From contig JAFVRE010000051.1 of NCBI GenBank assembly GCA_017504465.1, positions 5,218-69,217 on the forward strand: a stretch of 64,000 nt of DNA, in the 5' to 3' direction. Source of the DNA: Clostridia bacterium. Its GTDB lineage: Bacteria; Bacillota; Clostridia; Christensenellales; Borkfalkiaceae. The notes below the pieces were generated by a model, which did no database searches, had not been told where the DNA came from, and worked only from the letters and a program-made list of their open reading frames with translations. A program made the position numbers and the translations under genes. Below, piece by piece: positions 1,433 through 59,837 of this stretch. Position 1 is the stretch's first letter; each line of letters begins with the position of its first letter.

Positions 1433-3913
1433 ATGAACGCAATGCATGAAATACTTGAACAACTTAATGAAGAACAAATCAAACCCGTCTTACAAACGGA
1501 AGGGCCCGTGCTTGTTCTTGCGGGCGCGGGTAGCGGAAAAACCCGCGTTTTGACGTCGCGTATTGCTTACCTCATCGGCGAAAAGCGCATACCTGCCGAG
1601 GCGATACTCGCCATTACCTTCACAAATAAGGCGGCGGCGGAAATGAAAGAGCGTATCGAAAAAATCGCGGACGCGCGCGGTATGTGGGTATGTACTATCC
1701 ATAGCATGTGCGTACGCATTTTGAGAATGTTTGCCGCTGAAGCGGGCGTTACGCCGAATTTTTCTATTTATAGTGAAACCGAACGCAACAACATTATCAA
1801 AAAATCTTTTCAAGAATGTGATTACGACGATGAAAAACTTTTAAAAAGCGTAAAATATCACATCGCGAACGCGAAGATGCTCGGTTACGCTCCTGAACGC
1901 TATGCAAACGAATTTGCGGGAGAGCGGGATATTGAAGATATCGTAAAAATTTACGCGCAGTATCAAAAGCACTTAAAGGAAAACAACGCGCTCGACTTTG
2001 ACGATTTATTAAACGAAACGCGTAACCTTTTATATCGCGACGACAACGCGCGTGAATATCTTGCGGGCCGTTTTCGTTATATTCTCGTTGACGAGTTTCA
2101 GGATACGAACGTCGTGCAGTACGAGATAGTAAAACTGCTTTCGTCCGTACACGGTAACTTATTCGCGGTTGGCGACGACGACCAGTCGATTTACGGTTGG
2201 CGTGGCGCGAAGATAGAAAATATCCTGCATTTTGAAAAGGATTTTAAGGACGCAAAAGTCTTTAAATTAGAGCGAAATTACCGCTCCACAAAAGGCATAT
2301 TAAAGCTTGCAAATACCGTTATTAAAAACAACGGTAGGCGCAAGGATAAAACGCTTTGGACGGAGAACGAAGAAGGGGACAAACCCAAAGCGCACGAAGC
2401 GGAAGAAGAGAGCGGAGAAGCTCGGTTTGTGGCGCACACAATCGCAGGGTTGATGCGGTATGGGTATAAATACTCCGATTTTGCCGTTTTGATGCGGCTC
2501 AACGCACTTACGCGTTCCTTCGAACAAGAATTCACTTCGGACGGCATTCCCTACAAGGTATTCGGGGGCTTTAAGTTCTTTGAAAGAAAGGAAATTAAAG
2601 ACCTGCTTGCATATCTCCGTCTTATCAACAACCCGTTCGACAGCGAGGCGGCGGTGCGTGTTATCAACTTCCCTAAGCGCGGAATCGGCGCAAAGACGGT
2701 TGAAACGCTCCAAAATTACGCCTATGAAACGGAATTATCCGTTTACGACGCTCTTTTGGATGTGGACGAAATAGGATTCAATAGCGGTACCAAGCAAAAA
2801 CTCAACGAGTTCACCGCGCTCGTTAAAAAATGGATTATAGAAAGCCAGGAACTTCCCGTCAACGAGCTTGTAAAACATATCGTTATCGACACGAATATGC
2901 GTGGCGCGTATTCGGACAACAGCGACGAGAGTATTAACAAACTTGCAAATATCGAAGAATTTATCAATTCCGTGGACGAATATTGCAGACTCAATCAAGG
3001 CGCGACGTTGACCGATTATCTCAATCAAGTCACTTTGAGTTCGGATACAGACGAAATGGACGATAGCGATTACGTAACGCTCGCCACCATTCACTCGGTC
3101 AAGGGCTTGGAATTCAAATGCGTATTTATCATAGGCATGGAAGAGAATATTTTGCCTGTATCACGCAGTGTGGAGAATCCCGACGATTTAGAAGAAGAAA
3201 GGCGTCTTACCTACGTTGCAATCACGCGTGCAAAGGAACGCTTATATCTTACTCGATCCAAGAGCCGTTATTTATACGGCAAACGCGAACCGACGATGCG
3301 TTCAAGATTTTTAAAAGAACTCGCTTCGGAAATCGAATTGCCCAAAGAATCCTTGAGAAACGGCTACGGAAATTACGGTAGTTACGGTTACGGTTCGGAC
3401 GGTTACGGCGACGACGATCCCGAAGCCTACGGAAATTCTGCCTACGGCGCGGCGCGTTACGACGATAATTCCGCTTACCGCTCCTACGGTACGGGCACTT
3501 CTTCACGAAACGGATACGCTTCTTCTACGCCTAAGCGTAGCACGTGGACAGGTTACGGAAATTCGTCTTACGGCGGAGCAGGTTACGGAAATTCAGCCGC
3601 CAAACGCACGGGTACGTACACGGGCAGTTACGGCTCGGGAACGTACGGAGCTTCGCAATCAAGCTCGGCGAATAGACAATCAGGTGGCAGCGTATATGGC
3701 GGAATCGGTAGCTTAAACAAAGCCAAGGCAGGCGCAGGAAAGGATTTAAGCGCTTTCAAAATCGGCGTAAAGGTCAAGCATCCAAAGTTTGGCGAAGGCA
3801 CGATCGTCGGTATGCGCGGTGTTGGCGCGAATATGATTTTAGACATTGCGTTCGTGGGCTTGGGGATAAAACAGCTTTCAGCCTCATTAGCGCCTTTAAC
3901 TGTGTTGAATTGA
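1433..3913 (+). CDS. pcrA: ATP-dependent DNA helicase PcrA/UvrD family with a long Y/G/S-rich linker before the C-terminal Tudor-like domain
   Basis: Motifs AGAGSGKT, DEFQDTN, LERNYRS, TIHSVKGLEF. C-terminal KFGEGTIV segment typical of PcrA. Confidence 0.93.
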   Translation: MNAMHEILEQLNEEQIKPVLQTEGPVLVLAGAGSGKTRVLTSRIAYLIGEKRIPAEAILAITFTNKAAAEMKERIEKIADARGMWVCTIHSMCVRILRMFAAEAGVTPNFSIYSETERNNIIKKSFQECDYDDEKLLKSVKYHIANAKMLGYAPERYANEFAGERDIEDIVKIYAQYQKHLKENNALDFDDLLNETRNLLYRDDNAREYLAGRFRYILVDEFQDTNVVQYEIVKLLSSVHGNLFAVGDDDQSIYGWRGAKIENILHFEKDFKDAKVFKLERNYRSTKGILKLANTVIKNNGRRKDKTLWTENEEGDKPKAHEAEEESGEARFVAHTIAGLMRYGYKYSDFAVLMRLNALTRSFEQEFTSDGIPYKVFGGFKFFERKEIKDLLAYLRLINNPFDSEAAVRVINFPKRGIGAKTVETLQNYAYETELSVYDALLDVDEIGFNSGTKQKLNEFTALVKKWIIESQELPVNELVKHIVIDTNMRGAYSDNSDESINKLANIEEFINSVDEYCRLNQGATLTDYLNQVTLSSDTDEMDDSDYVTLATIHSVKGLEFKCVFIIGMEENILPVSRSVENPDDLEEERRLTYVAITRAKERLYLTRSKSRYLYGKREPTMRSRFLKELASEIELPKESLRNGYGNYGSYGYGSDGYGDDDPEAYGNSAYGAARYDDNSAYRSYGTGTSSRNGYASSTPKRSTWTGYGNSSYGGAGYGNSAAKRTGTYTGSYGSGTYGASQSSSANRQSGGSVYGGIGSLNKAKAGAGKDLSAFKIGVKVKHPKFGEGTIVGMRGVGANMILDIAFVGLGIKQLSASLAPLTVLN

Positions 3914-3920
3914 AGAAGTT

Positions 3921-4050
3921 AAACGCGTATATACTACGCATTTCTTCGTTGCGCTACGTTTTTCTAAGTCGTGTACGTTCGTGTACACTTCTGTCGAAAA
4001 GCCTCGCGCGCCTTGAACTGCTTGTATCTCCGCGTTTGATGGTAGTCAGT
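3921..4050 (+). repeat. post-stop-codon repeat element, copy after pcrA
   Basis: About 70 percent identity by eye with 28231-28365 (shared aaacgcgtat, cgcatttcttcgt, gcttgta.ctccgcgttt...tagtc). Confidence 0.8.
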
Positions 4051-4066
4051 TACAGGATAACGGATT

Positions 4067-4095
4067 CCACAATGCAAGCTTTGCTTGCAATTCAT
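4067..4095 (-). repeat. solitary copy of the ATGAATTG-hairpin-CATTRTGG unit, upstream of ligA
   Basis: Reverse complement reads ATGAATTG-CAAGC-AAA-GCTTG-CATTGTGG. Copy at 10762-10790 reads ATGAATTG-CAAAC-GCT-GTTTG-CATTATGG. Confidence 0.8.
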
Positions 4096-4106
4096 TTTGG
4101 AGAATT

Positions 4107-6056
4107 ATGAACAGACAAAGAGAATTAACAGATATCTTAAACAAATGGGCATATGAATATTACGTTCTCGACAACCCCACCGTTTCCGACGGCGAATACG
4201 ATAAGCTCTACGACGAACTCCGCAAGCTTGAAGAACAAACGGGAGTGGTTTTTCCCGATTCTCCTACGCGCAGAGTAGGGGGCGAGCCCATCAAGGCATT
4301 TGAACGCCACGAACACGTTGCGCGTCTTTTCAGCCTTGATAAAGCGGTGACGAAGGAAGAATTGGAAGCTTTTGTGACGCGCGTAGAAAAGGCGGGCGGA
4401 GCGGACGTTGATTATACCGTTGAATATAAATTCGACGGACTTACCGTTTGTCTCACTTATGACAACGGCGAGTTTATCCGCGCGACGACGCGCGGTAACG
4501 GCATAGTCGGTGAAGACGTTACGGCGCAGGTGTTGACCATAAAATCCTTCCCTTTAAAAATCAAATATCCCCACCTTTTAGAAGTGCGCGGCGAAGCGGT
4601 GATTCGTTTGTCCGTGCTTGAAAAATATAACCAAACGGCGAGTGAGCCCTTGAAGAACGCGCGCAACGCGGTGGCAGGCGCTATCCGCAATCTTGATCCT
4701 AAAATCACCGCCGAAAGAAAACCGGATATTTATTTTTATGATATCAATTTCATGGGAGGCGGAGAGAGTCTTTCGCAAATTGAGGCGCATGATTTTCTAA
4801 TCGAGCAGGGATTTAAAGTTTTTCCGTATTTCAAAATTTGCAAGGGAAAAGAACTCTTTTCCGCAATCGAAGAAATTGAAAAAGGCAGAAAGGCGTTGGA
4901 CGTTTTAACGGACGGCGCAGTCGTCAAAGTGAGTGATGATAAACTTCGAGATTTCATGGGCGCAACCGATAAATTTCCGCGCTGGGCGACAGCGTATAAA
5001 TTTGAGGCGGAAGAAGTAACAACCATTTTAAAAGAAGTAATTTGGCAAGTTGGGAGAACGGGCAAGCTTACTCCGCTTGCACTTTTAGAGCCTGTCGATT
5101 TGGGCGGAGCAACCGTTTCAAGAGCCACTTTGAATAATTACGGCGACATTCAAAGAAAAAACGTTAAAATAGGAAGCCGTGTGCTCGTGCGTCGTTCTAA
5201 CGAAGTAATCCCTGAAATTTTAGGTGCAACCGAGCATTTTGAAAAGAGCCAAGAAGTGCAAAAACCTCGTACCTGCCCCGCATGTAACTCTATTTTAGAC
5301 GAAGTTGGGGCGCATCTATTTTGTCCAAATAAGTCTTGCGAGCCTCGAATTGCGGCAAAGCTTGACCATTTTGCGTCCAAAAACGCCATGGACATAGACG
5401 GATTTTCGGAAAGTACGGCTTGCGCGCTCATAGAACGGAAGCAGGTTAGAGAATTTTCCGATTTGTATCGCTTAACAGAAGAAGATTTGAAAGAGCTTGA
5501 CGGGTTTAAGGACAAAAAGATCCGCAATTTGCTTAGCGCAATCGAGAAAAGCAAACGCCCGACGCTTGACGCGTTTATCTACGCGATCGGCGTGGACGGG
5601 GTAGGCAGGGTAGCGGCGAAGGACCTTGCAAAGACTTTTAAGAGCATTGAAAAACTTAAAAACGCGACGATGGAAGAGCTTGTCGGTATGGAAAATATCG
5701 GCGAGATTACAGCGAGCGGTATTACTCAATATTTCTCGGACGAAGACAACCTGAAAGAGATTGATGATCTTTTCGCGCTCGGCGTAACGCCCGTGTGGGA
5801 AGAAAAGGGAGATATCGAAGGTGTTTTCAAGGGCGAATCAGTAGTTTTGACAGGCACGCTGAAAAATTTTAAGCGAAGCGAAGCGCAAAAACTAATTGAA
5901 GCGCAGGGCGGAACTTGTCAAAGCTCGGTCACGTCCAAAACCACGCTTGTTATCGCGGGCGAAGAGGCTGGAAGTAAGCTTGAAAAAGCGAAAAAATTAG
6001 GCATAAAGATCATCGACGAAGAGAGTTTTTCTCAAATACTCGAAAAAAAGGACTAA
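4107..6056 (+). CDS. ligA: NAD-dependent DNA ligase
   Basis: Adenylation motif EYKFDGL, four-Cys zinc finger (CPACNS...C..C), HhH region and BRCT-like C-terminus. 649 aa. Confidence 0.95.
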   Translation: MNRQRELTDILNKWAYEYYVLDNPTVSDGEYDKLYDELRKLEEQTGVVFPDSPTRRVGGEPIKAFERHEHVARLFSLDKAVTKEELEAFVTRVEKAGGADVDYTVEYKFDGLTVCLTYDNGEFIRATTRGNGIVGEDVTAQVLTIKSFPLKIKYPHLLEVRGEAVIRLSVLEKYNQTASEPLKNARNAVAGAIRNLDPKITAERKPDIYFYDINFMGGGESLSQIEAHDFLIEQGFKVFPYFKICKGKELFSAIEEIEKGRKALDVLTDGAVVKVSDDKLRDFMGATDKFPRWATAYKFEAEEVTTILKEVIWQVGRTGKLTPLALLEPVDLGGATVSRATLNNYGDIQRKNVKIGSRVLVRRSNEVIPEILGATEHFEKSQEVQKPRTCPACNSILDEVGAHLFCPNKSCEPRIAAKLDHFASKNAMDIDGFSESTACALIERKQVREFSDLYRLTEEDLKELDGFKDKKIRNLLSAIEKSKRPTLDAFIYAIGVDGVGRVAAKDLAKTFKSIEKLKNATMEELVGMENIGEITASGITQYFSDEDNLKEIDDLFALGVTPVWEEKGDIEGVFKGESVVLTGTLKNFKRSEAQKLIEAQGGTCQSSVTSKTTLVIAGEEAGSKLEKAKKLGIKIIDEESFSQILEKKD

Positions 6057-12520: not shown

Positions 12521-13561
12521 ATGATTTCCGAAAAAAATTACGAAAAATATATGCTTGACAGTCTAAAAGAAATTTTAGCGGTGGATAGTCCGACGGGCTT
12601 TTCCAAATCGATCAATGAAAAACTTGTCGAAATGCTTACAAAGCTTGGTTATAAAGTGGAAGTTACCAACAAACGCGCGGTACGCGTTGGCGTAAAAGGC
12701 AAGTGCTCGGAGAAAAAACTGGCGGTTTCCGCGCACGTGGATACGCTTGGCGCAATGGTGAAAAGTATTTCCGGCAACGGAGAATTGAGATTTACCCGTC
12801 TTGGCGGTCCTATTCTTGCCACGTTAGACGGCGAATATTGTAAAATTTACGCGGACGGCGGGAAGGTATATACAGGCACTTTCCTTTCCGATTCTCCTTC
12901 TTGCCACGTCTACAAGGACGCAGGTACGAAAGAGAGAAATGAAGATACCATGTACGTGCGTATTGACGAAGAAGTAAGCTCGAAAGCGGACGTAGAAAAG
13001 CTTGGTATCCGCGTAGGAAGCCTGATTGCGATTGACACCAAAACCACGATTACCGACAGCGGATACGTGAAATCCCGTTTCCTTGACGATAAGGCGGGCA
13101 GCGCTTGTTTGCTTGCTGTTTTGTACGCGTTAAAGAGTGAAAATCTCGTACCTGCCTATGACGTTGATTTCTATTTTACAAACTATGAAGAGGTTGGACA
13201 CGGTGCGGCAACGATCGCAAAGGACGCGGACGAGTTGCTTGCCGTGGATATGGGTTGCGTCGGAAACGGACTTTCCTGCAAAGAAACACAAGTTTCGGTA
13301 TGCGTAAAGGACGGTCACGGTCCGTACGATTATGAAATGGTTGAAAGATTGCTTTCTATCGCTAAGGCAAACGGAATAGATTATGCAGCGGACGTATATC
13401 CTTACTACGGTTCGGACGTTGGTGCGGCATGGTCGGCAGGCGCGGACGTTAAAGGCGGGTTAATCGGCCCGGGCGTACACGCTTCGCACGGCATGGAACG
13501 CACGCATAAAAAGGGCTTGGTGGCAACCGTGTCCTTGATCAGCGCATATTTGGGGTTATAA
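12521..13561 (+). CDS. M42 family metallopeptidase (glutamyl aminopeptidase-like)
   Basis: AHVDTLG, FLDDKAG and NYEEVGHG metal-ligand motifs. 346 aa. Confidence 0.85.
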   Translation: MISEKNYEKYMLDSLKEILAVDSPTGFSKSINEKLVEMLTKLGYKVEVTNKRAVRVGVKGKCSEKKLAVSAHVDTLGAMVKSISGNGELRFTRLGGPILATLDGEYCKIYADGGKVYTGTFLSDSPSCHVYKDAGTKERNEDTMYVRIDEEVSSKADVEKLGIRVGSLIAIDTKTTITDSGYVKSRFLDDKAGSACLLAVLYALKSENLVPAYDVDFYFTNYEEVGHGAATIAKDADELLAVDMGCVGNGLSCKETQVSVCVKDGHGPYDYEMVERLLSIAKANGIDYAADVYPYYGSDVGAAWSAGADVKGGLIGPGVHASHGMERTHKKGLVATVSLISAYLGL

Positions 13562-16763: not shown

Positions 16764-16773
16764 GGCAGGTACG
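16764..16773 (+). repeat. intergenic copy of the over-represented word GGCAGGTACG (gltX-cysK spacer)
   Basis: Extended match GGGGCAGGTACGAGAGT is identical to 54766-54782. Confidence 0.9.
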
Positions 16774-16823: not shown

Positions 16824-17741
16824 ATGGAAATTTTATCAGGTGCGGAACGGCTGATTGGCAATACGCCGATGGTCAGGCTGCAAAAAACTGAACGGGACTT
16901 GAATTTAAGAGCCGAGCTGTACGCAAAGCTCGAAAGCGCAAACCCCACGGGTTCGAGCAAGGACCGCGCTGCGCTGTTTATGCTTGCGGCGGCGGAACAA
17001 AGCGGGGAGCTTTCAAAGGGCGGGACCGTCATTGAGCCGACGAGCGGCAATACAGGCATTGCGCTCGCTGCGCTTTGTGCAGTCAAAGGCTATAAAGCGG
17101 TAATCGTCATGCCCGAAACCATGAGCGAAGAACGAAAAAACCTCATGCGCGTTTATGGTGCAAAGCTTGTTTTAACGGACGGCGCGCTCGGTATGGCAGG
17201 CTCGATTGAAAAAGCAAAAGAGCTTTGCGCAAAAACCCCGAATTCTATCATTTTAGGACAGTTTGAAAACCCTGCGAACGCCAAGGCGCATTACCATACG
17301 ACAGGCCCTGAAATTCATACGCAGATGGGGGGCAGGTACGAGATTTTCGTTGCAGGCGTAGGTACGGGCGGTACGTTTACGGGCACGGTAAAATACCTTA
17401 AAGAACAAAAAAGCGACGTATATGCAGTAGCGGTTGAACCCAAAAGCTCAGCTGTACTGTCAGGCGAAAAGAGTGGTCCGCACGGATTGCAAGGCATAGG
17501 CGCAGGATTTATTCCAAGCGTTTTGGACACCAGCCTAATCGACGAGATTGTAAAAATTGACGACGAATCGGCATACTTTGCCGTTCGATATCTTCTTGAA
17601 AAGGAAGGTTTATTCGTTGGGATTTCCTCAGGCGCGGCATTTGCGGCGGCGGTGGAGCTTGCCAAGCGCGAAGAGAACGCAGGCAAGAAAATCGTGACCG
17701 TCTTCCCGGATTCCGGCACGAAATATTTATCCGTGCTTTAA
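16824..17741 (+). CDS. cysK: cysteine synthase A (O-acetylserine sulfhydrylase)
   Basis: PLP-lysine region NPTGSSKDR, GTGGT loop, SSGA motif. Confidence 0.9.
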   Translation: MEILSGAERLIGNTPMVRLQKTERDLNLRAELYAKLESANPTGSSKDRAALFMLAAAEQSGELSKGGTVIEPTSGNTGIALAALCAVKGYKAVIVMPETMSEERKNLMRVYGAKLVLTDGALGMAGSIEKAKELCAKTPNSIILGQFENPANAKAHYHTTGPEIHTQMGGRYEIFVAGVGTGGTFTGTVKYLKEQKSDVYAVAVEPKSSAVLSGEKSGPHGLQGIGAGFIPSVLDTSLIDEIVKIDDESAYFAVRYLLEKEGLFVGISSGAAFAAAVELAKREENAGKKIVTVFPDSGTKYLSVL

Positions 17742-22008: not shown

Positions 22009-22764
22009 ATGAAAGATTATTTAGCAACGATCGTTAAAAACGAACAAATAGCGGAAAACATCTACGAAATCACCTTTGACGTGGGCGAAGAAGTAAACGT
22101 CCGCGCAGGTCAATTCGGAGAAATTTCAGTTGGCGGTACGCACCTTTTACGCCGCCCGATTGCGATTTGCAAAGTGGAAAAAAATCTCGTTACTTATTGT
22201 TATCAATTAAAGGGTGCAGGCACTCGTGAATTAGCAACGATGGGGGCAGGTACGCGTTTAAACGTACTTATGCCGCTCGGAAACGGATTTTTTGTGGAAG
22301 AAAATGAACCAAAAATTGCGCTCGTTGCAGGAGGAGTGGGAATTTTCCCTATTATTTCCGTGCTTCGCGAATATGCGGGCAAAAAACAAATTTCCGCGTA
22401 CGTTGGGTTTAGAAACAAAGGCGCTGTTTGCGGACTTGACGAATTTAAAAAAGCGGATAAGTTCGTTGCGGTAACGGACGACGGAAGCTTTGGCGAAAAG
22501 ATGAACTCCGTTCAAGCCTTCGTTGCAGACTTAAAAAACGGTAACCGTCCCGACGTCGTGCTTGCTTGCGGACCTACGCCTATGCTCCGCGCTTTGAAAA
22601 AGGTAGTGGAAGAAGAAAACTTGAACTGTTACGTTTCTTTGGAAGAGAGAATGGGTTGCGGACTCGGCGCGTGCGTAGTATGCGTATGCGCGTTGACGAA
22701 CGGCAAGAACGCGCGCGTATGTAAAGACGGGCCAGTTTTTAACGCGTTAGACGTCGTGCTTTAA
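22009..22764 (+). CDS. pyrK: dihydroorotate dehydrogenase electron-transfer subunit
   Basis: FAD-binding RRPIAI motif. C-terminal 2Fe-2S cysteines CGLGACVVCVC. Confidence 0.88.
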   Translation: MKDYLATIVKNEQIAENIYEITFDVGEEVNVRAGQFGEISVGGTHLLRRPIAICKVEKNLVTYCYQLKGAGTRELATMGAGTRLNVLMPLGNGFFVEENEPKIALVAGGVGIFPIISVLREYAGKKQISAYVGFRNKGAVCGLDEFKKADKFVAVTDDGSFGEKMNSVQAFVADLKNGNRPDVVLACGPTPMLRALKKVVEEENLNCYVSLEERMGCGLGACVVCVCALTNGKNARVCKDGPVFNALDVVL

Positions 22765-23705: not shown

Positions 23706-23715
23706 GGCAGGTACG
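23706..23715 (+). repeat. intergenic copy of GGCAGGTACG (pyrD-pyrE spacer), preceded by a partial tandem GGGCAGG
   Basis: Sequence is aaGGGCAGGGGCAGGTACGCTC. Confidence 0.9.
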
Positions 23716-33719: not shown

Positions 33720-34856
33720 ATGAAACTGACGACGGCAGGTGAATCTCACGGTAAAGCGCTCGTGGCGATCATTGAAGGCGTACCTGCCCACCTGAAAATC
33801 AATTTAGACAAGATAAACACGGAGCTTGCCTTGCGTCAAAAAGGCTACGGTAGGGGGGCTCGCCAAAAAATAGAACAGGACAAAGCAGAGCTTTTATCAG
33901 GCGTAAGAAACGGCGAAACGCTGGGTAGCCCGATTGCCCTTTGCATTTGGAATAAGGACTATGTAAATTGCTTAGAGTATATGTCCGACGGGAAATGCGA
34001 CAAAGCGAAAACGCTTGAGAAATCAGTCACAAAGCTTCGTCCGGGGCACGCGGATTTGGCAGGCGTTCTCAAGTTCGAGCAAACGGACGCGCGCAACGTC
34101 TTGGAACGCGCTTCTGCTCGTGAAACGGCAATTCGCGTTGCCGCAGGCTCAGTTTTCAAGGAATACTTGTCCGCGCTCGGCGTAGAAATCAGCGGTTACG
34201 TGCGTGAAATCTATTCGGTAAAAGATCAAAAGGAATATACTTTCGACGAGATAAAACTCGCAAAAACTACCGAGCTTGGTATGTTAGATCATGGAAAAAG
34301 CGAGCTTGCAAAACTGCAAATCGACGCCCTTAAAGAAAACGGCGACACGGCAGGCGGAGTGGTAGAAATCCGTGTACGCGGCTTAAAAAGCGGATTTGGC
34401 AGTATGATGACTTATGCAGAAAAGCTGGATGCGCGTTTAGCGGGCGCGCTTATGGGCATACAAGCGGTCAAGGGTGTGGAAATCGGTATGGGCTTTGACT
34501 GCGCGCGGACAAGCGGTAAACAAGTCCACGACGAAATCTTATACGGCGAAAACGGCTTTTCACGCAAAACCAACCGCGCCGGCGGGATTGAAGGCGGAAC
34601 GTCGAACGGAGAAGAAATCGTTGTGAGGCTCGCAATGAAACCCATTCCCACTTTAATGCAAGGTTTGCAAACGGTGGACTATTTAACGAAAGAAAAGGCT
34701 GTGGCGGACGCTCAGCGCAGTGACGTATGTGCAATTTTTGCGCTTGAAATTATTGCGGAAGCGGTAGTTTCCGAAGTGCTTGCAAACGCCGTTTCTGAGC
34801 GTTTGGGTGGAGATACTATGTCGCAGGTTATAGCGCGCTACAATCAATTAGCATAA
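33720..34856 (+). CDS. aroC: chorismate synthase
   Basis: N-terminal TAGESHG, LRPGHAD and RSD(V/T)CA motifs. Confidence 0.92.
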   Translation: MKLTTAGESHGKALVAIIEGVPAHLKINLDKINTELALRQKGYGRGARQKIEQDKAELLSGVRNGETLGSPIALCIWNKDYVNCLEYMSDGKCDKAKTLEKSVTKLRPGHADLAGVLKFEQTDARNVLERASARETAIRVAAGSVFKEYLSALGVEISGYVREIYSVKDQKEYTFDEIKLAKTTELGMLDHGKSELAKLQIDALKENGDTAGGVVEIRVRGLKSGFGSMMTYAEKLDARLAGALMGIQAVKGVEIGMGFDCARTSGKQVHDEILYGENGFSRKTNRAGGIEGGTSNGEEIVVRLAMKPIPTLMQGLQTVDYLTKEKAVADAQRSDVCAIFALEIIAEAVVSEVLANAVSERLGGDTMSQVIARYNQLA

Positions 34857-34863: not shown

Positions 34864-35940
34864 ATGGTCGCTATGAAGGAAATTTTACTAAAAACAACGA
34901 CGTTAGAAAGCAGGATTTTTGTGGGGGATAATTCTCTTGAACGCATACCTGCCCTTACGAAAACGCAAAAAAACTTTGTAATTACCGATAAAAACGTATA
35001 TTCTTTGCATTCGGAGTGCTTTAAGGAATATTTTTTAGATACTGCAATTTTTGTGCTGCAAGCAGGGGAAGAAAATAAAAATTTCCAAACCCTTTCAAAA
35101 ATCCTTGAAAGAATGCTTGAAAGCGGTTTGAATAGAGAGTCGCGAGTGTTCGCTGTCGGCGGCGGTATGGTTGGGGACGTAGCAGGGTTAGCGTCCGCGC
35201 TGTTTATGCGCGGAATTTCTTACGTGCAAATCCCTACCACGTTGCTTGCGCAAATTGATAGCGGCGTCGGCGGAAAAACGGCGCTTAATCACGGCGGAGT
35301 AAAAAATTCTATCGGCGCATTCCATCAACCGATGGAAGTGTTAATCGCTCCGCAGTTTTTGAAAACTCTGCCAGCCCGAGAAATAAAATGCGGAATGGGC
35401 GAGCTTGTCAAATACGCCGCGCTCGATCATAAAATTTTCCACGGATTATTAGGAAATGAACAAATTTTGACTCAACCAACGGGGCAATTAGAAACCCTTA
35501 TCACGCGTTGCATAGAGCTTAAAGCGCGCGTAGTGGAGCGGGACGAAAAGGAGCGAGGGGAGAGAAAATCTCTCAACGTTGGGCATACGACGGGGCACGC
35601 AATCGAGCTTTCATTTGGTTTTTCACACGGCGAAAGCGTACTTTACGGAATGGCGTTTGAAACGCTGATAGCCATGAATAAAGGTGTGTGCGACCGCGCT
35701 TATGGCGAAAAACTGCTCTCTATTATATGGTCGGCGTTAGATATTTCTCCCAAAACGCAGTTGAAAGTTCAAGATATTGAAAAATTTGCGGATAAGGCGA
35801 AATTTGACAAAAAAAATGCATCTGACGAAAAAATCGTTATGGCGGTTGCAAAAGCGGAAGGCGAGTGGGAGTTGCTCGCTTTAGACTATGAAGAATACGT
35901 CCACCAGCTTCGTTTTGCGATGGAGCAATTTTCTCTTTAA
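34864..35940 (+). CDS. aroB: 3-dehydroquinate synthase
   Basis: GGGMVGDVAG nucleotide-binding motif, NVGHTTGHA metal site. Confidence 0.88.
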   Translation: MVAMKEILLKTTTLESRIFVGDNSLERIPALTKTQKNFVITDKNVYSLHSECFKEYFLDTAIFVLQAGEENKNFQTLSKILERMLESGLNRESRVFAVGGGMVGDVAGLASALFMRGISYVQIPTTLLAQIDSGVGGKTALNHGGVKNSIGAFHQPMEVLIAPQFLKTLPAREIKCGMGELVKYAALDHKIFHGLLGNEQILTQPTGQLETLITRCIELKARVVERDEKERGERKSLNVGHTTGHAIELSFGFSHGESVLYGMAFETLIAMNKGVCDRAYGEKLLSIIWSALDISPKTQLKVQDIEKFADKAKFDKKNASDEKIVMAVAKAEGEWELLALDYEEYVHQLRFAMEQFSL

Positions 35941-37215: not shown

Positions 37216-37225
37216 GGCAGGTACG
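37216..37225 (+). repeat. intergenic copy of GGCAGGTACG directly in front of the aroE start codon
   Basis: Sequence is aaGGGGGGCAGGTACGAG-ATG. The G-run doubles as the only SD-like element. Confidence 0.9.
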
Positions 37226-39747: not shown

Positions 39748-39757
39748 CATACCTGCC
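39748..39757 (-). repeat. intergenic copy of the word (reverse orientation) in the convergent spacer after the SDR gene
   Basis: Reverse complement GGGCAGGTATGAGATGAA is close to the aroE copy GGGCAGGTACGAGATGAA. Confidence 0.9.
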
Positions 39758-40851: not shown

Positions 40852-40861
40852 ACTAAAAATA

Positions 40862-42738: not shown

Positions 42739-42782
42739 AAAATACGCGAATAAAAAAGGGTGTAAGAATAAGAGGTGTATTT

Positions 42783-44814: not shown

Positions 44815-45576
44815 ATGGCAGTTATCACTATGAAACAGCTTTTAGAAGCAGGCGTACACTTTGGTCACCAAACCAGAAAGTGGAATCCCAAAATGAAGAA
44901 GTACATCTTCGCAGCAAGAAACGACATTCACATTATCGACTTGCAAATCACGGCTAACTTGATCGAAGAAGCGTACAAATTCGTTTGCGAAAGCGTAAAA
45001 GCAGGCAAGAGCGTACTTTTCGTAGGTACGAAGAAGCAAGCTCAAGAAGCAATCAAAGAAGAAGCGGAAAGATGCGGACAATATTACGTAAATTCCCGTT
45101 GGCTTGGCGGCTGCTTGACCAACTTCAAGACGATGAGATCGAGAGTTGAAAGACTTGAAAAGCTCGAAGCAATGGAAGCAAACGGCGATTTCGACCTTTT
45201 GCCCAAGAAAGAAGTAATGCTTCTCAAAAAAGAAATGGGAAAACTTCAAACGAATCTTGGCGGTATCAAGAAGATGAAGGCAATGCCCGGCGTTATGTTC
45301 GTTGTAGATCCCCACAACGAAGACATCGCAATCAAGGAAGCAAAGAAGCTTGGCATCAAGATCGTAGCAATCACGGACACGAACTGTGATCCCGACGTTG
45401 TAGATTACGTAATCCCCGGCAACGACGACGCAATCCGTGCAATCAAATTAATCGCAAGCGTAATGGCAAATGCAGTAATCGAAGCAAACCAAGGCGAAGA
45501 AGCGGTAGCGCAAGAAGTAGAAGCAAAAGAAGTTGCAACGGATATCGAAGAAGTAGTTGCAAGCGAAAACGCATAA
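44815..45576 (+). CDS. rpsB: 30S ribosomal protein S2
   Basis: [20 protein letters not shown]-terminus is diagnostic. Confidence 0.96.
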
Positions 45577-45623
45577 GCGTATAAAACCAAACTAAAAAAT
45601 CAAATCGAATAGGAGAAAAAATT

Positions 45624-46523: not shown

Positions 46524-46542
46524 TCATCGAGTAAATACTCAA

Positions 46543-51643: not shown

Positions 51644-52696
51644 ATGTTATTCACGACCGACAATTTTGAGTTTAGTCGCATACCTGCCCCCTTGATTTCG
51701 TGGTATCACGAGAATAAGCGGGATCTTCTTTGGCGAAAGAGCGCCGATCCTTACAAGGTATGGGTGTCCGAGATTATGTTACAGCAAACGCGCGTGGAAG
51801 CGGTAAAAGAATATTACGCGAGATTTTTAAACGCCTTGCCCGACGTTTTTGCTTTGGCGAGTTGTCAAGAAGAGCTTTTATTGAAGCTTTGGGAAGGTTT
51901 GGGGTATTACAGTCGGGCGCGGAATTTACAAAAAACCGCAAAAATAATCGTATCGGAATACGCGGGGAAATTCCCTGAAAGCAAAGCGGAGTTATTGAAA
52001 TTACCGGGCGTGGGGGAATACACGGCAGGCGCGATTGCCTCGATTGCTTTATATAAGCGCGAGCCGGCGGTGGACGGGAACGTTTTTCGCGTGATTTCGC
52101 GTTTGAGCGAGAATCCAACGGATATTTCCGAGCCGAAATACCGCGGATATATTACCGAGAAATTACGAGAAGTTTATCCGCCTGAAGGCGTTCTTTGCAG
52201 CGACTTTACGCAGGCACTAATGGAGCTTGGCGCGACTGTTTGTAAACCGCAATCGCCCGAGTGCGAGCGTTGCCCGCTTGCCGAGATTTGTTTGAGCAGG
52301 GCGAACGGAACGCAGGAAAAATTCCCTGTTTTGCCCGAGAAAAAATCAAAACGCAGGGAGCAGGTATGCGTTCTTTTAATAAAAACTCCGTTTGGGATCG
52401 CCATTCGCAAACGTGAACAAGGGGTTTTGAAGGGTATGTACGAATTTCCGTCTTTTGTGGGATTAAGCGCGGAAGAAGGATTAAAGGAACTCGGTATTTC
52501 AAGTTATAAACTGATAAAAAAATCCAAAGCCACGCATATTTTCACGCATATTGTATGGGATCTGCAAATTTCGCTTATCGAAACGGAAAAAGTGAATTTA
52601 CCGACGTATTCACTTACGGAAATTAAAGAAAAAATCTCATTGCCGACGGCATTTCGTCAATGCTTAAAGGTTTTCGACGGACTGGAAGGTGTATGA
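51644..52696 (+). CDS. mutY: A/G-specific adenine DNA glycosylase
   Basis: HhH-GPD region LPGVGEYTAGAI. 4Fe-4S cluster C.{6}C..C.{5}C (CKPQSPECERCPLAEIC). Nudix-like C-terminal domain. Confidence 0.9.
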   Translation: MLFTTDNFEFSRIPAPLISWYHENKRDLLWRKSADPYKVWVSEIMLQQTRVEAVKEYYARFLNALPDVFALASCQEELLLKLWEGLGYYSRARNLQKTAKIIVSEYAGKFPESKAELLKLPGVGEYTAGAIASIALYKREPAVDGNVFRVISRLSENPTDISEPKYRGYITEKLREVYPPEGVLCSDFTQALMELGATVCKPQSPECERCPLAEICLSRANGTQEKFPVLPEKKSKRREQVCVLLIKTPFGIAIRKREQGVLKGMYEFPSFVGLSAEEGLKELGISSYKLIKKSKATHIFTHIVWDLQISLIETEKVNLPTYSLTEIKEKISLPTAFRQCLKVFDGLEGV

Positions 52697-53979: not shown

Positions 53980-55245
53980 ATGAAAGTTAAGGTAAAAGAA
54001 GCGAATATAGAGCAGGTTTTAGCGATAAAGCCAAAGAAGAAAAGGGTGAAAAAGCCGAATATTATTTTTCGAACGCTATTAAAAATAATCTCACTGCCCA
54101 GTCTGATGTCCGTTAAATTCAAGTGTGAAAGGGTAGGAATGGAACGGCTTGGAAAAAAGGAACAATGTTTGATTTTAATGAATCATTCAAGCTTTATTGA
54201 CCTTGAAATTCTTTCGTCGATTTTCTATCCCCGTCCGATCAATATAGTAACGACGTTCGACGCGTTTATCGGGAAGGATTGGCTAATGCGTCAAATCGGC
54301 TGTCTTGAAACGAAAAAATTTACCACGGGCGCAGGGCTTTTGCGAGATATGTCTTATGCATTAAACAAATTGAAAACGTCCATTTTAATCTTCCCGGAAG
54401 CCGGGTATTCCTTGGACGGAAGAGCAACGGTTTTGCCTGATAGCTTGGGGAAATGCTTAAAGTTCTTTAAAGTACCAGTTGTGACGGTAATCACGGACGG
54501 TGCGTTTGCAAGACAACCTCTGTATAACAATTTACGAAAAAGAAAAGTGCCCGTTACCGCAAAGATGGAATATCTCTTCTCCCCTGAAGATATTAAAGAA
54601 AAAAGCGTAGAGCAATTAAATGCAATCATTCGCGAAAAATTCTCTTTTGACAACTTTAAGAATCAAAAAGAGAACGGACTGATCATCGCCGACGAGAACC
54701 GTGCGGAAGGTTTACATAGAGTTCTCTATAAATGCCCGAACTGTCTTACCGAAGGGGAAACGGTGGGGGCAGGTACGAGAGTAACGTGTAAACACTGTCA
54801 AAAGGAATATGAACTTACCGAGCTTGGCGAAATTCAAGCAGTAGGGGCGGATACAGAGTTTTCGAGTGTTTCTGAGTGGGTTGACTGGGAACGCGATTGC
54901 GTAAAAAGGGAAATCGAAGGGGGCAGGTACGCGTTCAATGAGCCTGTTGATATTCGAGTCATGGTGGATACAAAGACGATTTATTCGGTGGGCGAAGGTG
55001 CGCTTAAACACGACGAGAACGGATTTGTATTGACGGGCTGTGGCGGAAAGCTGGAGTATAAGCAAAGCGCGACGGCGATTTACACAATCAACGCGGATTT
55101 TTACTGGTATCAAATTGCAGACACCATTAATATCGGGGATTTGAACGTGCAATATTTCTGCTTCCCGAAATCTGACAAAGTGAGCGTCTTTAAAGCAAGG
55201 CTTGCAACCGAAGAACTTTATAAACTCAAAAGACAAAATCCATAA
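53980..55245 (+). CDS. lysophospholipid (PlsC-type) acyltransferase family protein with a C-terminal zinc-ribbon extension
   Basis: HX4D motif NHSSFID, FPEAG motif, CPNC...CKHC ribbon. Confidence 0.8.
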   Translation: MKVKVKEANIEQVLAIKPKKKRVKKPNIIFRTLLKIISLPSLMSVKFKCERVGMERLGKKEQCLILMNHSSFIDLEILSSIFYPRPINIVTTFDAFIGKDWLMRQIGCLETKKFTTGAGLLRDMSYALNKLKTSILIFPEAGYSLDGRATVLPDSLGKCLKFFKVPVVTVITDGAFARQPLYNNLRKRKVPVTAKMEYLFSPEDIKEKSVEQLNAIIREKFSFDNFKNQKENGLIIADENRAEGLHRVLYKCPNCLTEGETVGAGTRVTCKHCQKEYELTELGEIQAVGADTEFSSVSEWVDWERDCVKREIEGGRYAFNEPVDIRVMVDTKTIYSVGEGALKHDENGFVLTGCGGKLEYKQSATAIYTINADFYWYQIADTINIGDLNVQYFCFPKSDKVSVFKARLATEELYKLKRQNP

Positions 55246-55703: not shown

Positions 55704-57083
55704 TTAATAGCGGAGTTTTTTAAGTCGGGATTTAATACTTTTAATACCTGCCCTAGCCGAAGCGCGGCTACTGCCGCCTACGCTCGTTCTTGCGTTTGCG
55801 GAATTTTTCGCTTTGACAACGCTCAAAATATCTTCTTCAAAGATTTCGCAGTGCATTTTATATTCAGCCAAAGACATATTTTCAAGCGTCTTATTTTCAT
55901 CTAAGCAATAACGCACGATTTTCCCAACGACGCCGTGCGCGGTACGGAAGGGTACGCCGCGTTTTGCAAGATAATCAGCAACGTCGGTTGCGCAGGTAAA
56001 ATCTTCCGCAGCGGCAATTTCCATACGCTTTACGTTGAGCGTAATTTGTTGAAGCATAGACGTATAGATTGCTATGCAGTCCTTCACCGTCTTTTCGGCG
56101 TCGAACAAGCCTTCCTTGTCCTCTTGGAAATCCTTATTATACGCAAGGGGAACCCCCTTAATCGTCGTTAAAATCGCCATCAAATGCCCGTAAACGCGAC
56201 CTGTTTTACCGCGCACAAGCTCGGAGATATCTGGATTTTTCTTTTGCGGCATAATCGACGAGCCCGTGGAATATGCGTCAGGCATTTCCCAAAATCCAAA
56301 TTCCGTCGAGGTATAGAGAATCGTGTCTTCGCAAAGACGGGAAAGATGCGCCATAACGAGCGAGCAGTCGAATAAATACTCCGCGACAAAATCTCTGTCG
56401 GAAACACCGTCAAGAGAGTTTTGGGATACGCAATCAAAGGCTAAAAGTTCGCGCGTAATTTCTCGGTCAATGGGATAACTCGTACCTGCCAAGGCGCCGC
56501 TGCCCAAAGGCATAACGTTGATACGCTTCAAACCGTCGCAAAATCTTTGCGCGTCGCGAAGGAACATTTCCGAATACGCATTGAAATATTGAGCGCAGTT
56601 AATCGGCTGCGCTTTACGCAAATGCGTGTAGCCGGGCATGATATGGTGAACGTGCTTTTGCGCCATGTCAACGAGGGTAGCAACAAGGTTTTTAAGCAAC
56701 GAAATAATCTCTTTGGAAGACTCTCTCACGTACAATCTGAAATCGGTAGCAACTTGGTCGTTGCGGCTTCTTGCGGTGTGTAAACGCTTACCTGCCTCCC
56801 CGATTCTGCAAACGAGCTCGTTTTCCACGAAGGAATGAATGTCCTCTTGTCCCTCGATAATAAGCGTTCCGTTTTCAATGTCGGAAAGAATCCCCTTCAA
56901 CCCGTCGTGGATAGCGATTTTGTCACTTTCAGAGATTACGTTACAACGGCACAGCATTTCCGAGTGCGCGAGAGAGGCGGTAATATCCGCTTTATAGAGT
57001 TTTTTGTCGAAAGAAAGAGATTCGTTAAACGCATCGGCGTCCGCCGCAATCGGCGTAGCGAATCTGCCTTGCCATAATTTCAT
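55704..57083 (-). CDS. argH: argininosuccinate lyase
   Basis: Fumarate-lyase signature GSSIMPQKKNP, TARSRNDQV motif. Confidence 0.95.
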   Translation of the reverse strand: MKLWQGRFATPIAADADAFNESLSFDKKLYKADITASLAHSEMLCRCNVISESDKIAIHDGLKGILSDIENGTLIIEGQEDIHSFVENELVCRIGEAGKRLHTARSRNDQVATDFRLYVRESSKEIISLLKNLVATLVDMAQKHVHHIMPGYTHLRKAQPINCAQYFNAYSEMFLRDAQRFCDGLKRINVMPLGSGALAGTSYPIDREITRELLAFDCVSQNSLDGVSDRDFVAEYLFDCSLVMAHLSRLCEDTILYTSTEFGFWEMPDAYSTGSSIMPQKKNPDISELVRGKTGRVYGHLMAILTTIKGVPLAYNKDFQEDKEGLFDAEKTVKDCIAIYTSMLQQITLNVKRMEIAAAEDFTCATDVADYLAKRGVPFRTAHGVVGKIVRYCLDENKTLENMSLAEYKMHCEIFEEDILSVVKAKNSANARTSVGGSSRASARAGIKSIKSRLKKLRY

Positions 57084-57171: not shown

Positions 57172-57325
57172 AGAAATAGCGATTATTTATATTGTACATT
57201 TTTTTCATTCTTTTATCAAGTATTTTGCGCCTTGAAAACGCAAGTATTTCAAGCATTTAGGCATAATTTTTTTTCGCGAAATAATTTGTGTGGGATTGAG
57301 AAAAAATCAAGTAGGGAAAGGCAAG

Positions 57326-58030
57326 ATGATTATTTTAGGCATAGACCCCGGTATAGCGACGCTTGGCTTTGGGGTAATTGAAAAAGACAATAACGGCGTA
57401 TGCAAGGCAGTCGATTACGGCGTCGTAAAAACGCCCAAAGAAGAAAGCTTGCCCGTCCGTCTTGCCATACTCGAAGAGGGCGTAACCAAGGTTATTGAGA
57501 AATATAAGCCCGATGAAATCGCAATGGAAGAACTGTTTTTTACCAAAAACATCACTACAGGTATCGCGGTAGCGCACGCAAGAGGGGTTGCCATGCTTTG
57601 CGCGGTCAAGCATTGTGGAAAACTTTTCGAATACACCCCTATGCAAATCAAACAAGCGCTCACAGGCTACGGTAGAGCGGATAAGCAACAAATTCAACAA
57701 GTCGTAGCGTCGCTTTTGAAACTCAAATCCATTCCCAAACCCGACGACGCGGCGGACGCGCTTGCGATTGCGCTGTGTCAAGCCTTCACTTCTCGGTTTA
57801 ATAATCTATTCGCGGTTGGGAACACGACGAGAACGCAGGGCAACAATGCCGTTTCAGGCAGTAGCTTTGCAGAGCTGATGGCGGAAGAAGAAAAACGCTC
57901 GAAAAAATCTAAACCCAAAGCCGCATTTTCCAGCGCGACAAGCGCAAACGCTCTGTTTAAAAGTACGGGTTTAAGCGGAATTACGGGCGTGGGCAGGGCT
58001 GGTTCAATAAAGCCAAGCGATAAAAAATAA
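57326..58030 (+). CDS. ruvC: Holliday junction resolvase RuvC with an ~80-aa low-complexity C-terminal extension
   Basis: N-terminal ILGIDPG, catalytic E(E)LFF and DAADALAIA motifs. Confidence 0.88.
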   Translation: MIILGIDPGIATLGFGVIEKDNNGVCKAVDYGVVKTPKEESLPVRLAILEEGVTKVIEKYKPDEIAMEELFFTKNITTGIAVAHARGVAMLCAVKHCGKLFEYTPMQIKQALTGYGRADKQQIQQVVASLLKLKSIPKPDDAADALAIALCQAFTSRFNNLFAVGNTTRTQGNNAVSGSSFAELMAEEEKRSKKSKPKAAFSSATSANALFKSTGLSGITGVGRAGSIKPSDKK

Positions 58031-58048
58031 ATACGGAGTAAATAAACA

Positions 58049-58654
58049 ATGATAGCGTATTTAAGAGGAAAAGTAATGGCAATCACCGACGAAACGGTGA
58101 TTTTAGATGTGAACGGAGTAGGGTATGAAGCGTATTGCTCTGGCGAAGCCTTCCGTAAAACTTCCATCGGCGAAATAGCGGAACTTTATACCTATTTACA
58201 GGTCAAAGAAGACGGCGTTACGCTGTTCGGATTCGCGTCGCCAAAGGAAAAGGAATTGTTTTTAAAAGTCACGAGCGTTTCGGGCGTGGGCCCTAAACTC
58301 GGCATTTCTATCCTGACGGGTATGAGCGCGGACGAAGTCGCGATAGCCATTCAGACGGCGGACGTAAAACGCCTGAGCGCAGTCAAGGGCTTGGGCAAAA
58401 AGACGGCGGAAAAGCTCGTACTTGAATTACACGGCAAGATTTCCGCAGCGGAAGTAATGAGCGCAAGCGGAGAAAATCCTGTTAGTGTTTCAAATACCGA
58501 AAAACTTTCGCCTATTGACGAAGACGCGGTTGAGGCGTTGATGGGATTAGGGTTTAGCAAATCGGAAAGCGTTCAGGCAGTCAAACGCGCCAAAGACCAA
58601 GGCGCGAAAAGCGTGGAAGATATCATTATGCGAGCTCTGCAAGGCGGCTTTTAA
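58049..58654 (+). CDS. ruvA: Holliday junction branch migration complex subunit RuvA
   Basis: MIAYLRGKV N-terminus, two HhH motifs (VSGVGPK; VKGLGKKTAEK). Confidence 0.92.
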   Translation: MIAYLRGKVMAITDETVILDVNGVGYEAYCSGEAFRKTSIGEIAELYTYLQVKEDGVTLFGFASPKEKELFLKVTSVSGVGPKLGISILTGMSADEVAIAIQTADVKRLSAVKGLGKKTAEKLVLELHGKISAAEVMSASGENPVSVSNTEKLSPIDEDAVEALMGLGFSKSESVQAVKRAKDQGAKSVEDIIMRALQGGF

Positions 58655-58750
58655 ACTGTTGGTTATCTATGCGTTTCTGCGTTGTCGTTCGGCTGCGCAC
58701 CACGCGTACGCTCCTTCGCTCCGCTTTGACTTGCTTGTATAACCAAGCTG
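58655..58750 (+). repeat. post-stop-codon repeat element, copy after ruvA
   Basis: Shares cgcgtacgctcc and tttgacttgcttgta with the proS and pcrA copies, and gctccttcgctccgctttg with the queA copy. Confidence 0.65.
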
Positions 58751-58784
58751 AAATTCACACTGATGAAACCAAAAGGACGATATT

Positions 58785-59837
58785 ATGTTTGATGAAGAAT
58801 ATGAAAAAGAAGACCTTATCGTAAGCACGAAAACGGAGTACGACGCCGAAGAAAACGTGCTTAGACCAAAGACCATGGCGGACTACGTCGGTCAGCAAAA
58901 GGTCAAAGAAAATTTAGACGTATATATCTCGGCGGCGAAACATCGCGGCGAGGCGCTTGACCACGTGCTTTTATACGGTCCTCCCGGATTAGGAAAAACC
59001 ACGCTCGCGCATATTATTGCGAACGAGCTTGGCGTTTCCATTAAACTCACGAGCGGACCTGCCATTGAGCGTTCAGGGGATTTGGCGGCAATTTTGACAA
59101 ACCTCAACGAAGGCGACGTTTTGTTTATCGACGAAATCCACCGCTTGAACCGTTCGGTAGAAGAAATTTTATATTCCGCGATGGAAGATTACGCGCTCGA
59201 TATTATCGTCGGTAAAGGCCCGTCTGCGAGAAATATCCGTTTCTCGCTCAAAAAATTCACGCTGATCGGCGCGACGACAAGGGCAGGTATGCTTGCATCG
59301 CCCTTACGTGACCGTTTTGGAATCATCAACCGTCTTGAAATGTACACGCCCGACGAATTAACGCAAATCGTAACCCGTTCTGCAAACGCGTTGGGAATTG
59401 AAATCGACGGGGCAGGTGCGAGAGAAATCGCTTGCCGCAGCCGCGGAACCCCGAGAATTGCCAACCGTTTATTAAAGCGCGTTCGCGACTTTTCCATTGT
59501 AAACGGCAGCGCGGTAGTTACCCGCGAAGACGCACGCTTTGCGCTTGGCAGATTAGAAATAGACGAGCTTGGCTTAGACGAAACCGACCGTAACTTACTC
59601 CGCGCGCTAATTGAAAAATTCGGCGGCGGTCCTGCGGGGCTTGAAACGCTGTCGGCGACTATAAACGAAGACGCAAACACCATCGAAGACGTTTACGAAC
59701 CTTACCTTTTACAGCTTGGATTTATCGCTCGTACGCCGCGCGGAAGAATTTGCTTAAAAGACGGCTACGCGCACATGGGCTACGAGCCGAGCATGAAAGC
59801 AAAACGCCAAATTTCCATTTTTGAGGACGCTGACTAA
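58785..59837 (+). CDS. ruvB: Holliday junction branch migration DNA helicase RuvB
   Basis: GPPGLGKTT Walker [26 protein letters not shown]. Confidence 0.96.

Follow-up and report, generated by a model that had tools for sequence, protein, structure and literature searches.

A hyper-abundant, conserved 20-bp word in the chromosomes of uncultured Clostridia resembles DNA uptake sequences

The question raised by this stretch of chromosome is why one ten-base word, GGCAGGTAYG, recurs along its whole length, and what keeps the word in place. The stretch, a 64-kb segment of contig JAFVRE010000051.1 from an uncultured member of the Clostridia, is called the window here, and the word was counted on both strands. 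A preliminary description had reported 17 exact copies, 8 on the plus strand and 9 on the minus strand, and had put the number to be expected by chance at far under one. Our recount agreed, and 100 dinucleotide-preserving shuffles of the window contained a mean of 0.06 exact copies and a maximum of 1. The density is one copy per 3.8 kb and the enrichment is approximately 280-fold. The start coordinates given earlier were all correct except 56491, a typing error for 56481. When up to one mismatch was allowed, the window yielded 35 matches against 3.28 expected; 18 of these are one-mismatch copies, so that the earlier figure of "about 10" was too low, while the ten positions that it listed were all recovered. 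De novo counting under a third-order Markov model likewise returned the word and its extensions as the most over-represented sequences in the window at k = 9 to 12, with 8 copies of CGTACCTGCCCC against 0.01 expected. The over-representation is real, statistically overwhelming, maintained in evolution, and lineage-specific.

The 17 exact copies in the window are the following:

1588..1597, minus strand, core copy GGCAGGTATG in pcrA, antisense to the gene, read as I-P-A
5268..5277, minus strand, core copy in ligA, antisense, within the zinc-finger peptide R-T-C-P-A-C; species B and C keep it with the Y position alone changed
13147..13156, minus strand, core copy in an M42 peptidase gene, antisense, V-P-A; 24/24 bases identical in species B
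16764..16773, plus strand, intergenic, 8 nt past the stop of a tRNA-synt_1c gene (gltX-like) and upstream of cysK
17331..17340, plus strand, core copy in cysK, sense, G-R-Y, with the rare Arg codon AGG; identical in L207 of species B
22245..22254, plus strand, core copy in pyrK, sense, A-G-T
23706..23715, plus strand, intergenic, between pyrD and pyrE
31531..31540, minus strand, core copy in clpC, antisense, I-P-A; species B has GGCAGGTGTG with the flanks conserved
33779..33788, minus strand, core copy 59 nt into aroC, antisense, V-P-A; 24/24 bases identical in species B
34944..34953, minus strand, core copy 80 nt into aroB, antisense, I-P-A; retained in species B
37216..37225, plus strand, intergenic, between aroA and aroE; species B, C, and G have it at this junction too, and H has the decayed form GGCAGGTGTG
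39748..39757, minus strand, intergenic, 17 nt past the stop of an SDR gene, antisense to the flanking genes
51679..51688, minus strand, copy at the 5' end of mutY, antisense, I-P-A
54768..54777, plus strand, core copy in an acyltransferase gene, sense, A-G-T
54922..54931, plus strand, second copy in the same acyltransferase gene, sense, G-R-Y
56481..56490, minus strand, core copy in argH (a minus-strand gene), sense, A-G-T
59282..59291, plus strand, core copy in ruvB, sense, A-G-M

Thirteen of the 17 copies are thus intragenic, and the other four (16764, 23706, 37216, and 39748) lie in short spacers. Pfam annotation agreed with the host genes that had been named, and the earlier count of four intergenic copies was also right. 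The identities noted between distant copies were likewise borne out by a repeat finder (families D5, D8, and D11 and pairs I3 to I5, I8, and I13): the copies at 16762 and 54766 have the stretch GGGGCAGGTACGAGAGT in common, positions 13139-13156 and 17331-17348 are 100% complementary, and positions 33769-33789 and 54921-54941 are 95% complementary.

The closest named homologues of the LigA and AroC proteins are labeled "MAG: Clostridia/Clostridiales bacterium" (MAG, metagenome-assembled genome), and the window matches metagenome contigs (the species is represented in ENA assemblies ERZ27256852 and ERZ28653803); the labels of the samples suggest a habitat in ruminant and other guts. The relatives, designated B to H, and one further region of the clade carry the word as follows:

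Lineage B (L084, L085, L225, and L207), ~81% nucleotide identity to the window: 7 exact copies in 35.7 kb; the top or near-top word de novo
Lineage C (L086 and L227), ~74% nucleotide identity: 5 exact copies in 43 kb; TATGAG and GCAGGTATGAG favored
Lineage G (L231, GCA_045645245.1), AroC 76% identical: 6 exact copies in 19.5 kb; TATGCGTTCAA and GGCAGGTATGCGTTCAA favored
L126, an rluD-lspA-pncB-lgt-tkt housekeeping region that is absent from the window: 4 exact copies in 10.8 kb, including the search seed
Lineage H (L232 and L233; genome GCA_045644545.1), AroC 74% identical: 1 exact copy in 42 kb
Lineages D, E, and F (L088, L228, and L229), LigA 75 to 80% identical: one copy each in 22 kb; not enriched

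The de novo search thus placed the word at or near the top independently in B, C, and G. The L126 region lies outside the window and is nevertheless dense in the word, which is therefore not confined to one locus. The background is low, with 4 copies in 1.35 Mb from 80 unrelated bacterial loci (chosen by ClpC, best match 53% identical), and viral contigs gave single matches at chance level alone, with no evidence of phages that carry the word. A scan of metagenomes with GGCAGGTACGAGNTTTTY gave, among the matches listed, mostly single chance ones; L126 and L207 clearly belong to the clade, and the membership of L203 and L122 is doubtful. Taken across relatives and controls, the analysis establishes the word as a lineage-specific "self" tag on the chromosome.

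Several one-mismatch copies in lineage H (GGGGCAGGTGTG and GGGGCAGGTATT) occupy sites at which the copy is perfect in G, C, or the window, and they look like the products of decay after the force that maintained them was lost. The shorter GGGGCAGGT is still enriched in H, with 5 copies in 20.7 kb against a background of ~1.2 (in L233 at 840, 3835, 5659, 7659, and 18432, for example), and its 3' half has diverged; these copies look as though they are decaying, or as though specificity has been relaxed. A replacement dialect was considered for H, RAGGATATGCTC, with 5 copies in 21 kb. It was rejected: the 93%-identical L233 has mutations in two of the three orthologous copies, and no copy occurs in the 10 kb of new DNA that it adds. 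The de novo search found no over-represented word peculiar to D, E, or F. The GTGCTYRT words in L228 and L229 were dismissed as one local repeat cluster or as no coherent motif. Short repeats of the sequence GGGGTGCTTATTTGGTGCTCGTGGCCGG cluster, in both orientations, in an intergenic region of relative E (L228, 21073-21325); they are unrelated to the main word.

Copies of the word stay where they are as the sequence around them changes. Seven of nine aligned window copies are perfect in species B, compared with 17% for the 10-mers of these alignments as a whole (binomial P ~3e-4). An eighth perfect orthologue, that of the copy at 39748, lies outside those alignments (L225, 14450), in surroundings that have diverged, and the copy at 16764 is retained in species B (L207) despite a diverged spacer around it. 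The more distant species C keeps two of five window copies against 6% expected. Antisense intragenic copies are as well conserved as sense ones. Divergence between the window and B is 4.9% (4/81, P = 0.0003) over the nine nondegenerate core positions and the same (4/81 = 4.9%, P = 0.0003) from +10 to +18, compared with 33% (3/9) at the degenerate Y position and 19 to 26% further out. Changes therefore concentrate at Y, the single position that the consensus leaves free. On these alignments, a unit of approximately 20 bp, from -2 to +17, is under constraint or drive. The copy at 37216 may have a second role. It carries an AGG that precedes the aroE start codon (ATG at 37228) by 6 nt and is the sole Shine-Dalgarno-like AGG there, and copy and AGG are conserved together in three species (window, 37216-37230; L225, 11536; L231, 11825); the copy thus seems to double as the aroE ribosome-binding site.

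The limits of the element were drawn from an alignment of 32 nonorthologous copies from the window and its relatives. The extension beyond the core that had been described, with G's on the 5' side and MG and a T-rich segment on the 3' side, was seen again in this alignment. The consensus, gGGGCAGGTAYG-MG-wTt-WW-y, is asymmetric and ~20 bp long, with a G-rich core, GGGGCAGGTAYG, followed by MG and then by an A/T-rich stretch. Upstream of the core there is an A at -8 in 24 of the 32 copies and a G at -2 and at -1; downstream come M at +10, G at +11 (27/32), T at +13 and +14, A or T at +15 (31/32) and +16 (30/32), and Y at +17. The first core base tolerates mismatches most readily. The flanks of mismatched copies can be typical, as in the following one:

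52359..52368, plus strand, one-mismatch copy AGCAGGTATG, with GGG on the 5' side and CGTTC on the 3' side

The sole palindromic tetramer of the word, GTAC, is disrupted in the T variants at the degenerate Y. Scans of the window against Rfam and for tRNAs found nothing, which means that the word belongs to no known RNA.

Dispersed copies in both orientations could also be left by a small mobile element, such as a miniature inverted-repeat transposable element (MITE), a repetitive extragenic palindrome (REP), or an insertion like the Rickettsia palindromic element (RPE), or by duplication. We consider this scarcely credible here. In the 32-copy alignment no similarity extends past about -8 to +18, a limit of ~27 nt, and the longest word-based repeat families returned by the repeat finder are 18 to 28 nt. 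A shared stretch this short means that the word is not part of a mobile element, be it MITE, REP, or in-frame insertion. Known units of this type are at least 30 nt long, have hairpin potential, and are inserted, whereas the word has none of these properties: it shows neither hairpin potential nor target-site duplications, and conserved peptides, the LigA zinc finger among them, contain copies. Orthologues without the word are neither longer nor shorter at the site, and substitutions are the sole difference. Together, the short similarity and the substitution-only orthologues effectively refute an origin by mobile element or duplication.

The pcrA site illustrates how a copy comes about. The sequence there is GGCAGGTATG in the window, GGCAGGTACG in E, GGCAGGCACG in C, GGCGGGGACT in B, and GGCGGGCACG in D, with no change in length; the bases alone differ across the species, and this copy therefore arose by point substitution. 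More generally, copies arise by ordinary point substitution wherever coding sequence or spacer tolerates them. The signal is at the level of DNA and not of any one peptide. Across its two orientations the word uses four reading frames in the window, and the peptides that had been read from them (G-R-Y, A-G-T, I-P-A or V-P-A, and R-T-C, depending on frame and strand) were recovered on the annotation, together with A-G-M. It does so with disfavored codons: AGG makes up 7% of Arg codons, GCC 12% of Ala codons, and ATA 16% of Ile codons. In the window the word encodes four of the seven IPA tripeptides (ATACCTGCC), two of five VPA, two of four GRY, and 4 of 11 AGT, and codon usage alone predicts ~0.6% for ATA-CCT-GCC. 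On pooling, spacers are enriched, with ~40% of 31 independent sites of the clade intergenic. Enrichment of the window copies near start codons was not significant (P = 0.05 to 0.16).

What, then, would hold such a word in place? Our best reading, tentative and in our estimation a little short of an even chance, is that it is a self-recognition word like the DNA uptake sequences (DUS) of Neisseriaceae and the uptake signal sequences (USS) of Pasteurellaceae, kept by biased uptake and recombination. The force behind the copies would be the same as in those families. A DNA receptor of the transformation machinery would prefer the word, the Firmicute candidates being a ComG-type pilin or minor pilin, or ComEA. 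Conspecific fragments that bear the word would be taken up and recombined more often, and the bias in uptake, acting as a molecular drive, would spread and keep copies across the core genome. Decaying copies in H and the lack of enrichment in D, E, and F would follow from a receptor that was lost or altered. A fuller version of this proposal, which could well turn out otherwise, is that a clade of uncultured ruminant and gut Clostridia independently evolved sequence-specific uptake, the first outside the Proteobacteria, with GGGGCAGGTAYGMG plus an A/T-rich flank as the tag and a competence pilin or ComEA to recognize it, and that the copies in H are tags decaying after loss of the receptor. 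Among the known classes of hyper-abundant words, DUS and USS are the best fit and alone match the whole set of properties, with terminator pairs excepted. The likeness to DUS and USS that had been proposed earlier therefore holds for nearly all of the sequence hallmarks that can be tested and fails for inverted terminator pairs, which are absent.

The USS of Pasteurellaceae (Hin-type, AAGTGCGGT; Apl-type, ACAAGCGGT) are like the word in having a nonpalindromic core of 9 to 10 bp with A/T-rich flanks, and the extended USS is a strong core followed by an A/T-rich flank. They too lie mostly or largely within genes, fall in several frames, inflate the matching tripeptides, occur in both orientations, and keep their positions between related species. 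The sequences themselves are unrelated, and the hosts are gammaproteobacteria rather than uncultured Clostridia. In addition, USS act at an outer-membrane secretin step that would be absent here if the host is monoderm. Haemophilus influenzae has 1,471 USS, with 65% in open reading frames (ORFs), and Actinobacillus pleuropneumoniae has 765, with 49% in ORFs (PMC2817400). The density in A. pleuropneumoniae is comparable to the one copy per 3.8 kb found here.

The DUS of Neisseriaceae (e.g., ATGCCGTCTGAA), which are bound by the minor pilin ComP, resemble the word in being 10 to 12 bp long and asymmetric with a flank preference, and in being clade-restricted, divided into species dialects, and enriched in spacers. 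The DNA receptor is ComP in Neisseria and is predicted to be ComN in Pasteurellaceae. Neisseria meningitidis has 1,892 DUS, with 34.5% in ORFs. Neisseriaceae species without the receptor are also without DUS, dialects occur, and two variants may be found in one genome, as in S. muelleri (PMC3630211). What may be a minor second variant, GGGGCATGGTCGAG, is likewise present here alongside the main word. With 2,245 to 3,603 copies per genome in Neisseriaceae (PMC3630211), DUS are several times denser than the word. The CTG that DUS have in common with the reverse complement of the word, CGTACCTGCC, is a three-base coincidence and no evidence of relationship.

The window also contains a second, weaker word, which has 6 exact copies against a background of ~1 per 64 kb:

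Copies of GCATGGTCG: 8444-8452, 13427-13435, 21377-21385, 36232-36240 (minus strand), 60087-60095, and 60657-60665

Several of these share the frame of the main word, with GGGGCA-TGGT-CGAG plus a T-run compared to GGGGCA-GGTA-CGAG plus a T-run, as if GCATGGTCG were a minor variant of the main word. The copies in the priA and M42 genes are not retained in species B. The palindrome ATTACGTAAT is mildly over-represented as well, with 3 sites in the window (~23-fold by the Markov model).

Several observations weigh against an uptake function. Sequence-specific uptake is not known to occur in any Firmicute. The preliminary description had likewise known of no uptake sequences in Firmicute-like genomes, and a search of the available literature gave no relevant report of the word, or of uptake sequences, in Firmicutes. 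A 2025 survey gives DUS in Neisseriaceae and USS in Pasteurellaceae as the uptake-enhancing sequences (bioRxiv 10.1101/2025.10.24.684340). The density is 3 to 5 times below that in Neisseria or H. influenzae, and known uptake sequences occur roughly once per 1 to 3 kb of chromosome. No competence or pilin genes are present in the ~70 kb read of this species. Inverted terminator pairs are common among DUS and USS, without being defining. No close inverted pairs of the word occur in the window, and no terminator-like hairpins overlap copies in 15 to 55 kb; approximately half of DUS and USS copies are in terminators (bioRxiv 10.1101/2025.10.24.684340), DUS often as inverted pairs. The depletion in accessory DNA is weak, with none of the 17 copies in 12.3 kb of leucine-rich repeat (LRR) and surface-protein genes (P ~0.03 for a region defined post hoc). 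Positional conservation and variants among clades would be expected equally of any DNA-binding protein that coevolves with its sites. Finally, the orientation of the copies is uneven on pooling. Twenty-nine orientable independent sites of the pooled clade lean ~20:9 toward sense, a lean driven by intergenic copies; by class, the 31 pooled sites are 9 sense to 2 antisense in spacers (2 ambiguous) and 11 to 7 within genes. In species G all 6 of 6 copies are on the plus strand, and a moderate polarity outside the window is possible.

The last of these points bears on a different explanation, that the word is a recombination hotspot of the Chi type for AddAB/RecBCD, or another polar signal such as the FtsK-orienting polar sequences (KOPS) or the SpoIIIE recognition sequences (SRS). 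Chi (Escherichia coli, GCTGGTGG; Firmicute AddAB, AGCGG, GCGCGTG, and GAAGCGG) is like the word in being G-rich, located in the core genome, and present once per few kilobases, and one copy per ~4 kb with a G-rich strand is near the density of Chi in E. coli; the pooled ~20:9 lean toward the sense or leading strand and the 6 of 6 in G also fit. Chi sites are over-represented a few-fold and are strongly co-oriented with replication. The GC skew (the excess of G over C) is positive across the whole window, which is therefore one replichore, and 46 of its 50 annotated genes are on the plus strand. On this single replichore the two orientations are interleaved, as had been noted, at 8 plus to 9 minus, with a probability of ~0.01 for 8 or fewer of 17 if 75% were co-oriented. 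Chi is 5 to 8 nt long, compared to a 10-nt core in a constrained footprint of ~20 bp, and an enrichment of ~280-fold is far above that of Chi. Antisense intragenic copies are conserved no less than sense ones, and the excess of sense copies stems mainly from intergenic spacers. We infer that this intergenic excess is an effect of tolerance, as the C-rich complement would put an anti-Shine-Dalgarno-like sequence into operon spacers. A polar signal of this type is, in our judgment, very improbable.

An unlikely explanation, though one to be taken seriously, is that the word is the site of an abundant chromosomal protein that has nothing to do with uptake and acts in nucleoid structure, condensin loading, segregation, or self-marking for defense, with sites kept singly by selection. 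A sharp conservation footprint of ~20 bp suits a protein on duplex DNA, as do the retention of copies at orthologous positions, the confinement of the word to one clade, in which relics mark lineages that may no longer have the partner, and the enrichment in short spacers (~40% of the 31 sites). Such a protein has not turned up as a candidate, and the known sites of this kind, namely, parS, those of Noc, the ram sites of RacA, matS, and those of SlmA, are palindromes present in tens of copies, with none that is asymmetric and found every 4 kb. Hundreds of sites in coding sequence, against codon preference, would also be hard to sustain without drive.

Drive of another sort would come from a context-specific bias in repair, methylation, or gene conversion that steadily turns near-matches into the word and has no part in uptake. 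The model here is the highly iterated palindrome (HIP1) of cyanobacteria, GCGATCGC, which is like the word in being hyper-abundant in coding and noncoding DNA and kept at orthologous positions. The nearly equal numbers of perfect and one-off copies (17 versus 18) are what conversion predicts. HIP1 is an 8-bp palindrome linked to a methyltransferase, and its function is not settled. HIP1 and the words of very-short-patch repair are short palindromes at methyltransferase sites, whereas the present word is asymmetric, has a ~20-bp footprint, and carries the degenerate Y inside its GTAC. We know of no repair system with a specificity of 10 to 20 bp, and we judge this explanation to be improbable.

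The preferred reading remains that of a DUS- or USS-like word, and on the sequence evidence the element is best described as an apparent uptake-type genomic tag in a new phylum, with a sequence unrelated to the known ones. Sequence-biased uptake is documented in two proteobacterial families only, and it is central to the debate over "sex with kin" versus nutrient acquisition and to the shaping of proteomes by molecular drive. If the reading is correct, this would be a third, independent origin, and self-preferential uptake would be a recurrent evolutionary solution. The machinery could differ, as the host would lack an outer-membrane secretin if it is monoderm like most Clostridia. The setting would be communities of the gut and rumen, in which gene flow has a bearing on resistance and metabolism. 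The word could then serve as a barcode for genome binning and as a boost for transforming an uncultured or intractable lineage, and the contrast of B, C, and G with the decayed H and the word-poor D, E, and F would allow a search for the receptor by gene co-occurrence. Even if it has some function other than uptake, the word remains a 20-bp chromosomal site that is very abundant and actively maintained, and no counterpart of it is known.

The distribution of the word over accessory DNA can be set beside what is known of uptake sequences. The interval from 39.8 to 51.6 kb and the terminal LRR gene contain no exact copy, just as had been described, and the absence of copies from LRR and surface-protein genes parallels the lack of uptake sequences in genes without homologues (PMC2817400). 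The species-specific metabolic genes of B and C do carry copies. A role for copies as borders of accessory segments was dropped, as homology to B runs past 39748. Extension of the contig added 2.3 kb, which is entirely LRR gene.

The accessory region has several features of its own. Relative to species B (window, 40500-46530; L225, 14475-16548), the rpsB-tsf pair is inverted, and two BspA-type LRR genes (41185-44528) are inserted between the SDR gene and rpsB, where the GC content falls to 0.38 to 0.41. The BspA-type LRR genes (41602-44356 and 62415-63454) contain tandem units with a 69-nt period, and an LRR gene contains a 207-nt duplication (41790-42203) whose copies are 98% identical. On the minus strand, 46687-50757 encodes a protein of 1,356 amino acids that combines a Listeria-Bacteroides repeat with a weakly matching Hint (intein/hedgehog-like) module, and it is followed by a 215-amino-acid ORF with no Pfam match; neither gene contains the word. 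Elsewhere in the window, a gene for a 23S rRNA intervening-sequence protein (PF05635, 10811-11176) lies between def and a radical-SAM HemN-like gene and is not at this position in B (L085), and a RuvC-type Holliday-junction resolvase is encoded at 57290-58030, upstream of ruvA and ruvB. In relative F (L229, 6710-9985), the PcrA/UvrD helicase, at 1,091 amino acids, is extended at its N terminus by a segment that weakly matches CoiA_N, a competence-protein domain.

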